This document shows positions 5,062 through 5,272 of a stretch of 11,667 nucleotides of DNA, piece after piece; positions within the stretch are counted from its first letter, which is position 1; each line of letters opens with the position of its first letter. The stretch lies in IMG/VR virus record IMGVR_UViG_2526164618_000009, one strand, 5' to 3'. The notes under the pieces were generated by a model, which saw only the letters and a program-made list of their open reading frames with translations, searched no databases and had not been told where the DNA came from. Source of the DNA: a virus (taxonomy: Duplodnaviria > Heunggongvirae > Uroviricota > Caudoviricetes). The position numbers and the translations under genes are program-made.

Positions 5062-5231
5062 AACAGGAACCACCTCGCCTGACGTAGTTAAAAGCAGGCA
5101 CACAACGCGAAATGACGCGGCGGTAAGTATGGCGGAGTTATTCCTTCCCCGTTGAGGACACCGGGTTGTCAGGTTGACCATACGCTTAAGTGACAACCAC
5201 GCCACAACACTCCATGTTGATTGGTACCTTT

Positions 5232-5272
5232 GGCGGCATCAGTTTCATTGCTGGCTGATGTCCGCCCTTTTT
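5232..5272 (+). terminator. Candidate Rho-independent terminator on the plus strand
   Basis: Stem GGCGGCATCAG (5232-5242) pairs with CTGATGTCCGCC (5255-5266) with a one-base bulge and a 12-nt loop, followed by C then TTTTT (5268-5272). Confidence 0.5.

Follow-up and report, generated by a model that had tools for sequence, protein, structure and literature searches.

The question raised by the present locus is what an intrinsic terminator with no gene in front of it might terminate. The DNA under study, a stretch of 11,667 nucleotides from IMG/VR virus record IMGVR_UViG_2526164618_000009 that is called the window below, carries a hairpin followed by a U-tract on its plus strand, and both a terminator scan and folding located these where an earlier note on this DNA had placed them, with the T-tract at 5268-5272. 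In the scan, the stem on the plus strand spans 5235-5262, with CGCCCTTTTT after it; the terminator sequence on this strand reads GGCGGCAUCAGUU-UCAUUGCU-GGCUGAUGUCCGCC, then CUUUUUAAAG. The region 5205-5275 folds at -23.8 kcal/mol (z = -3.7), a value equaled by none of 200 shuffled sequences. As 20 terminator-like motifs were counted in the window, against 12.0 +/- 2.6 in shuffles, such motifs are frequent here and a terminator motif alone is weak evidence; the support beyond chance is provided by the z-score of the fold and, above all, by homology. The observation in the same note that no credible protein-coding sequence precedes the terminator on the plus strand also stands. A plus-strand protein gene in 5106-5220 was ruled out, as stops occur in all three frames in nearly all of 96 distinct sequences of this region, and the two plus-strand ORFs at 4596-4892 and 4943-5155 are present and run antisense to a real minus-strand pseudogene (4986 to 4542).

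The element that ends at this terminator is almost certainly a homologue of the DicF family of small RNAs. Its parts are as follows.

5106-5205, plus strand: conserved upstream block of the DicF precursor region, untranslated; 100% identical to the locus of E. coli RMDEC465 and 95% to that of E. coli K-12
5219-5272, plus strand: DicF-family small RNA, minority allele (RF00039 alignment; same sequence in P393-F10 and at four Shigella chromosome loci)
5232-5266, plus strand: terminator hairpin of the small RNA, with 13 pairs, one bulge, and an 8-nt loop, followed by C and UUUUU (5268-5272)
5274-5440, plus strand: structured spacer with a predicted closing stem of about 22 pairs, 5274-5295 with 5418-5440 (MFE fold of 5100-5445)

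In an E-value scan of 4800-5500, all of positions 1-52 of RF00039 (DicF) were aligned to 5219-5267 with a score of 38.8 bits (E 7.2e-7). As the curated gathering cutoff of this family is 48 bits, the element is not called DicF under Rfam's own rule, and a gathering-threshold Rfam scan of the window gave no match at the DicF site. The DicF of K-12 scores 76.7 bits, and the allele of RMDEC465 gave no RF00039 match at E <= 0.01. The comparison with Rfam covariance models that the earlier note had proposed thus yielded a full-length alignment to DicF, albeit with a score below the cutoff.

The window is homologous over 5106-5440 to the long untranslated ydfC-dicF-dicB segment of the Qin prophage of E. 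coli K-12, in which dicF occupies 2883-2935 of the comparison locus (L001). Identity to K-12 varies along the segment.

5106-5205, plus strand: upstream block, 95%
5206-5266, plus strand: DicF tail and hairpin, 79%
5267-5327, plus strand: U-tract and the next 60 nt, 98%
5328-5370, plus strand: variable spacer, 72%
5371-5440, plus strand: downstream block, 94%

The flanks around the DicF segment are, thus, 94-98% identical to those of K-12, and the position of DicF between genes of the ydfC and dicB types was found as well. The 81-nt sequence of the hairpin region occurs exactly in E. coli P393-F10 and with a match of 98.8% in E. coli 06-00048. In both of these strains, the order is a repressor region, ydaF/ydfB-type genes, the DicF element, dicB, a DUF1482 gene, an exonuclease gene, xis, and int. 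The RF00039 alignment, the homology to K-12, and the presence of the same allele in a canonical dicB context identify the hairpin as the terminator of a DicF-family sRNA gene. It is very probable that this gene, 5219/5221-5272, lies in the untranslated scaffold (5106-5440) of a lambdoid early-left operon of the Rac/Qin type. An A/U-rich site of the RNase E type, GUUGA/UUGG, with the cut at about 5220/5221, suggests that the 5' end of the RNA would be near 5221.

Like K-12 DicF, the window element lies in the long untranslated stretch that separates ydfC from the following gene, and it shares with it the GGCGG/CCGCC base of the stem, the CCCUUUUUAAAG tail, and the downstream stem. The two differ in their 5' tails, which read GUUGAUUGGUACC in the window and UUUCUGGUGACG in K-12, and in their loops: that of the window, UUUCAUUGCUGG, lacks the CUCCG that faces the Shine-Dalgarno sequence CGGAG of ftsZ. 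Moreover, the upper stem is fully paired in the window, the gene 3' of DicF is not dicB, and the promoter of the operon is missing. Matches of approximately 81% identity to window positions of about 5200-5440 were also seen in PP818812.1 (Actinobacillus phage vB_Apl-pPE4) and MT713136.1 (Aeromonas phage AP1, 254 kb); such hosts are unexpected for an Escherichia/Shigella prophage element and might be explained by horizontal transfer or by contamination.

The reason why the terminator looks orphaned is found upstream. The window is a Shigella-type chromosome region with a decayed Rac-like prophage and several IS elements, as is apparent from the features listed here.

911-1093, minus strand: CssrB sRNA (RF02799; 151.6 bits, full length), upstream of ipaH and on the opposite strand
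1222-2937: IpaH effector gene with NEL and LRR domains (NCBIfam IpaH_Shig, 562.6 bits against a cutoff of 550)
3658-4239, minus strand: IS transposase remnant (Pfam HTH_Tnp_1, 1e-12)
4384-4420, plus strand: last 12 codons of a ydfC-like gene (4384 aligns to position 5001 of the RMDEC465 locus, L028, in which ydfC ends at 5037)
4542-4986, minus strand: pseudogene of a 148-amino-acid protein with CPEC...CPSC motifs (found in two frames by tblastn with the intact RMDEC465 protein)
7698-7919 and 8539-9963: KilR and RecE, remnants of the Rac-like prophage

Through the IpaH protein, NCBI chromosome records were found with a 99.8% match to the window over 736-11230; CP026871.1 and UGYU01000001.1 are two of them. 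The intact operon of RMDEC465 has the exact architecture of the window, with an HTH repressor-like gene, a DUF1391 (ydfA-type) gene, ydfC, a minus-strand gene, the DicF site, and isrK/C4/Rha. Homology of the window to this operon begins at 4384, within the last ydfC codons, and 4384-4420 is the sole remnant of the upstream genes of the operon. Where RMDEC465 has the repressor-like gene, the region of the operon promoter, the ydfA-type gene, and the greater part of ydfC, the window now has the IS remnant (3658-4239) and, to the left of it, the ipaH island. IS-mediated decay has, in other words, removed the 5' part of the operon and left the terminator seemingly on its own. The notion of a stand-alone unit without a gene does not hold for the intact relatives either: the long untranslated region of their operon contains the terminator, and the sRNA is released from the operon transcript by cleavage (PMC5069750; PMC9438474).

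The minus-strand gene has been inserted between ydfC and the DicF scaffold, and the plus-strand ORFs described in the earlier note are its antisense. The window copy carries one frameshift and one in-frame stop relative to the intact 148-amino-acid homologue of RMDEC465; no NCBIfam family matched this protein. In intact RMDEC465, the gene is convergent and located between ydfC and DicF, so operon read-through to DicF would be its antisense. An extended -10 element, TGTATAAT, near 5036-5043 on the minus strand is the likely promoter of the 4542-4986 gene. A crude consensus scan revealed no plus-strand promoter-like site of the sigma-70 type between 1504 and 5479. With no promoter-like site upstream, the window copy would be weakly expressed or silent, and that it is expressed and functional in this Shigella genome is rather doubtful.

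The DicF allele of the window is present without change in four Shigella loci. A fifth, in UGYS01000001.1 (L154), has a G-to-A change at the counterpart of window position 5236, which turns GGCGG in the terminator's 5' arm into GGCGA and breaks a G-C pair; this stem-breaking SNP fits relaxed selection. The same locus has an extra IS at the equivalent of window position 4692. The DicF region is absent altogether from UAUS01000001.1 (L150), which has two ipaH genes (5249-6892 and 10001-11716) with about 3 kb between them; a DUF4376 tail-fibre-assembly-like gene and an IS follow each of these.

The way in which K-12 DicF is made is well documented. It is cut from the operon transcript, its 5' end being generated by RNase E, and two forms occur: one of 53 nt, which ends at a Rho-independent terminator, and one of 72 nt, of which the end results from an RNase III cut in the read-through transcript (PMC5069750; PMC9438474). 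The RNA is Hfq-dependent and represses ftsZ, xylR, pykA, and manX (PMC5069750; PMC9438474). By analogy, a repressor-controlled promoter in the intact relatives of the window would drive a transcript of ydfA-ydfC, the scaffold, and then the downstream gene. RNase E would produce the 5' end of the sRNA, and the 3' end would be formed either by termination at the hairpin or by RNase III cleavage upon read-through by the polymerase, both steps being taken from the K-12 literature. The RNase III cleavage may be placed in the long stem just 3' of the terminator, and the RNA released would depend on Hfq and act in trans via base pairing. Other intra-operonic or 3'UTR-derived Hfq-dependent sRNAs, such as SroC and CpxQ, similarly need no promoter of their own and take the terminator of the upstream unit as their 3' end (PMC9438474). 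They differ from the present case in that SroC and CpxQ are made by early termination and RNase E, whereas the parent transcription unit in the window has been deleted and the usual route of synthesis is gone.

The upstream block (5106-5205) did not match any Rfam family. Its entropy across 96 distinct loci is below 0.15 over 5111-5130 and 5161-5200, of which 5161-5185 served as the search anchor and is invariant by construction. The block is more strongly conserved than the DicF segment and shows 95-100% identity to E. coli loci; it could act as a guide for RNase E processing. It contains small hairpins, CGCG-AAAUGN-CGCG and GGGG...CCCC, the latter appearing as CAGGUG...CACCUG in one locus. 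A minus-strand frame of the block is open in 60 of the 96 distinct sequences, probably by chance. A put-type antiterminator RNA in the block is not claimed, as there is no sequence similarity to phage HK022.

The same closing stem of the structured spacer is predicted in K-12, RMDEC465, and a third junction type. As the end of the 72-nt form (53 + 19 nt) falls within its 5' arm, the stem of about 22 pairs may be the RNase III substrate from which the longer DicF form arises. No support from covariation came out of pair counting on the downstream scaffold, in which the sequence is nearly invariant and the alignment register shifts between junction types, nor out of RNAalifold on 30 alleles, in which the flanks are too conserved and indels shift the register. 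A pairing of an upstream GGCGG with the CCGCC of the terminator that was proposed by RNAalifold is probably an alignment artefact. The STnc100 model (RF02076) matched the spacer directly 3' of the terminator both here (5279-5432, 36.5 bits) and in the dicF-dicB spacer of K-12 (L001 2947-3087, 34.1 bits), in each case below the cutoff of 47. The spacer of RMDEC465 gave such a match too, again below the gathering score (34-36.5 bits across the cases). STnc100 appears to be related to the structured spacer after DicF; all of its matches are, however, below the gathering score, and the spacer adjoins the sRNA and is not part of it.

The DicF segment between these conserved blocks is variable. A search anchored on the conserved upstream block returned 120 IMG/VR loci, and at least eight allele types were found in the DicF slot of these and of other loci that were fetched, the K-12 type being dominant. 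The window type, with a tail ending in AUGUUGAUUGGUACCUUU and the hairpin GGCGGCAUCAGUUUCAUUGCUGGCUGAUGUCCGCC, is rare: among 5426 complete E. coli genomes, a query of the K-12 type reached a coverage of at least 80% in 3973 and one of the window type in about 99. The slot is bounded by the conserved anchors CCGGGTTGTCAGGTTGACCATACGC and AAGTGAATTTTGTGATG. Across the 96 distinct loci, entropy has its maxima at 5221-5230, within the tail of DicF, and at 5251-5260, in the loop and 3' arm, and it is near zero in the flanking blocks. Other alleles at the site keep the hairpin despite a different sequence of the upper stem, which may be AUCAG/CUGAU, GUAUC/GAUAC, or UACCAG/CUGGUA; in one allele, a C-G base pair is replaced by U-A (GGUGG/CCACC instead of GGCGG/CCGCC). 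Tails and hairpins are present in mixed combinations in loci L034, L042, and L145, of which L034, with the K-12 tail and a different hairpin, and L145, with a K-12-like hairpin and a different tail, are apparent recombinants. In the blocks that directly flank DicF, the locus of RMDEC465 and the window share 97-100% identity, yet RMDEC465 carries a different, shorter DicF allele, which makes the DicF segment a mosaic spot. A scan of genome contigs with a degenerate DicF pattern was of little use, as just 3 of 24 loci were enterobacterial, all others being fortuitous matches in unrelated metagenome-assembled genomes.

The pairing capacity of the window allele was examined by cofolding with target mRNAs, the ddG (in kcal/mol) being compared with that of dinucleotide-shuffled targets and the fraction given being that of shuffles reaching the observed value. 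The mRNAs were E. coli K-12 sequences, which are assumed to be proxies for those of Shigella.

ftsZ: K-12 DicF -15.6 (1/100); window allele -8.0 (19/100)
xylR: K-12 DicF -15.2 (0/100); window allele -6.2 (36/100)
manX: K-12 DicF -15.4 (1/100); window allele -6.7 (33/100)
pykA: K-12 DicF -9.2 (26/100); window allele -9.3 (23/100)

Across two runs, the values for ftsZ ranged from -8.0 to -8.9 for the window allele (10/150 and 19/100) and from -15.6 to -16.3 for K-12 DicF (0/150 and 1/100). Nucleotides 26-52 of K-12 DicF paired with positions -2 to -28 of ftsZ, in agreement with the published pairing. Complementarity to the ftsZ translation-initiation region, historically the hallmark of the family, is at background level for the window allele in these cofolds with the K-12 ftsZ proxy. 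The sensitivity of the procedure is limited, as pykA, a validated target, was not resolved for K-12 DicF. On balance, a target set different from that of K-12 DicF seems somewhat probable, and the window allele, if expressed, would regulate targets other than those of its K-12 counterpart. Full-length duplex folding was dropped for target pairing, since it performed no better than with shuffled sRNAs, and seven nucleotides of the tail, AUUGGUA, that match ftsZ codons 7-9 were judged to do so by chance, the score of the whole interaction being within the shuffled range. A full-length gene for a KilR-family inhibitor of FtsZ (7698-7919, plus strand; NCBIfam, 159 bits) survives in the same prophage remnant, which therefore keeps a protein inhibitor of FtsZ while its DicF-type RNA is devoid of ftsZ complementarity.

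Three other readings of the element have to be weighed against that of a DicF-family sRNA gene. According to the earlier note, the terminator would belong to an independent novel sRNA with its own promoter that regulates the neighbouring genes as a cis-antisense RNA. The lack of a plus-strand protein-coding gene upstream and the fact that the upstream region is antisense to a minus-strand gene agree with such a model, and a short noncoding RNA ending at the terminator is indeed what the analysis supports. Its independence and novelty are contradicted by the clear homology to DicF and its scaffold, at the position of DicF, and no promoter-like site was seen upstream in the crude consensus scan. 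The antisense role fares no better: RNAs of the DicF family work in trans, no gene on the minus strand is overlapped by the conserved RNA (5219-5272), prophages without the minus-strand gene have the same allele (L026), and outside the element itself the window contains no complement of its tail or loop. This model is, therefore, highly improbable. The element might also be only a terminator or attenuator of the tL type that limits early-left read-through into the downstream module, the short RNA released having no trans function in the window allele. The base of the hairpin and the U-tract are the best-conserved parts of the DicF segment, the tail and loop varying freely; at the same site, some alleles, such as L042, have very short hairpins; and pairing of the window allele to validated DicF targets does not rise above background. 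Against this, the same slot yields, in K-12 DicF, a stable regulator that depends on Hfq (PMC5069750), the window allele has retained the single-stranded U-rich tail, strong hairpin, and U-tail that are the usual layout of Hfq-dependent sRNAs, and the precise conservation of a processing scaffold on both sides exceeds what a terminator needs. A role in termination only is thus considered unlikely.

According to the remaining reading, which is evenly poised between true and false, the element is a dead relic: it would be intact only because the decay of the prophage is too recent, and in this genome there would be neither transcription of it nor selection on it. The operon has lost its promoter, its repressor, and ydfA, only 12 codons of ydfC are left, the adjacent gene has become a pseudogene, and an IS truncates the downstream Rha gene. 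With 99.7-99.9% identity among the Shigella loci over their whole length, the sameness of their alleles is uninformative on selection, and one Shigella lineage has the stem-breaking SNP. Transcription might still be provided by read-through from upstream IS or ipaH sequences or by an IS-derived promoter. This reading concerns the activity of the element in this genome, not its nature, and is compatible with the DicF-family explanation.

Among prophage sRNAs, DicF is a textbook case, which inhibits cell division and reprogrammes sugar metabolism and virulence, and four dicF copies are present in EHEC. The window element belongs to this known family as a minority allele that scores below the Rfam threshold and is possibly retargeted and possibly silent. 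We tentatively propose that the DicF position may be a modular, recombining sRNA cassette in which prophages swap tails and loops independently between conserved scaffolds and so retarget the RNA; the window allele would then be a DicF that has been directed away from ftsZ, xylR, and manX and acts on another host or phage mRNA. Should such alleles, with their changed pairing regions, be active, the regulatory programme imposed on the host could differ from one prophage lineage to the next. An earlier conservation analysis used only dicF copies that were more than 99% identical to that of K-12 (PMC5069750), and presence/absence calls scored dicF as absent from several Shigella genomes (PMC3318445). 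Surveys of the latter kind may have overlooked alleles such as the present one, and in annotation, "DicF absent" may sometimes stand for "DicF allele below threshold". A polymorphic, modular DicF slot with alleles that are missed by curated models was not found described in the accessible literature, which was searched non-exhaustively. The practical importance of this particular Shigella copy is small, as its transcription signal has probably been lost.

Homology with dicB-type loci extends to about 5440, where the closing stem has its 3' edge. Beyond this point, dicB is replaced by an isrK/C4/Ash-Rha module of the P1 immI/Gifsy type.

5463-6095, plus strand: ORF with Ash and Rha domains (Pfam Phage_ASH, amino acids 14-109; Rha, amino acids 120-198)
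5479-5507, plus strand: promoter-like site (10 of 12 matches)
5514-5590, plus strand: isrK-like RNA (59.6 bits, above the Rfam cutoff)
5615-5702, plus strand: C4-like antisense RNA (76.7 bits, above the Rfam cutoff)

The ORF encodes 210 amino acids, against 282 in RMDEC465, and is followed by an IS. As both RNAs are located within its 5' part, the match to the Ash domain overlaps the isrK and C4 motifs. The junction of DicF to isrK/C4 recurs in several viral contigs with various DicF alleles, which indicates a natural combination of modules rather than an accident in Shigella. A third type of downstream junction after the closing stem (...CAACAAAGTTCATTTGTAAAAATGGAGATAATTATGATTGCTCAT) was observed in the IMG/VR loci L057, L114, and L122 and points to another gene cassette that replaces dicB or the isrK/C4 module.
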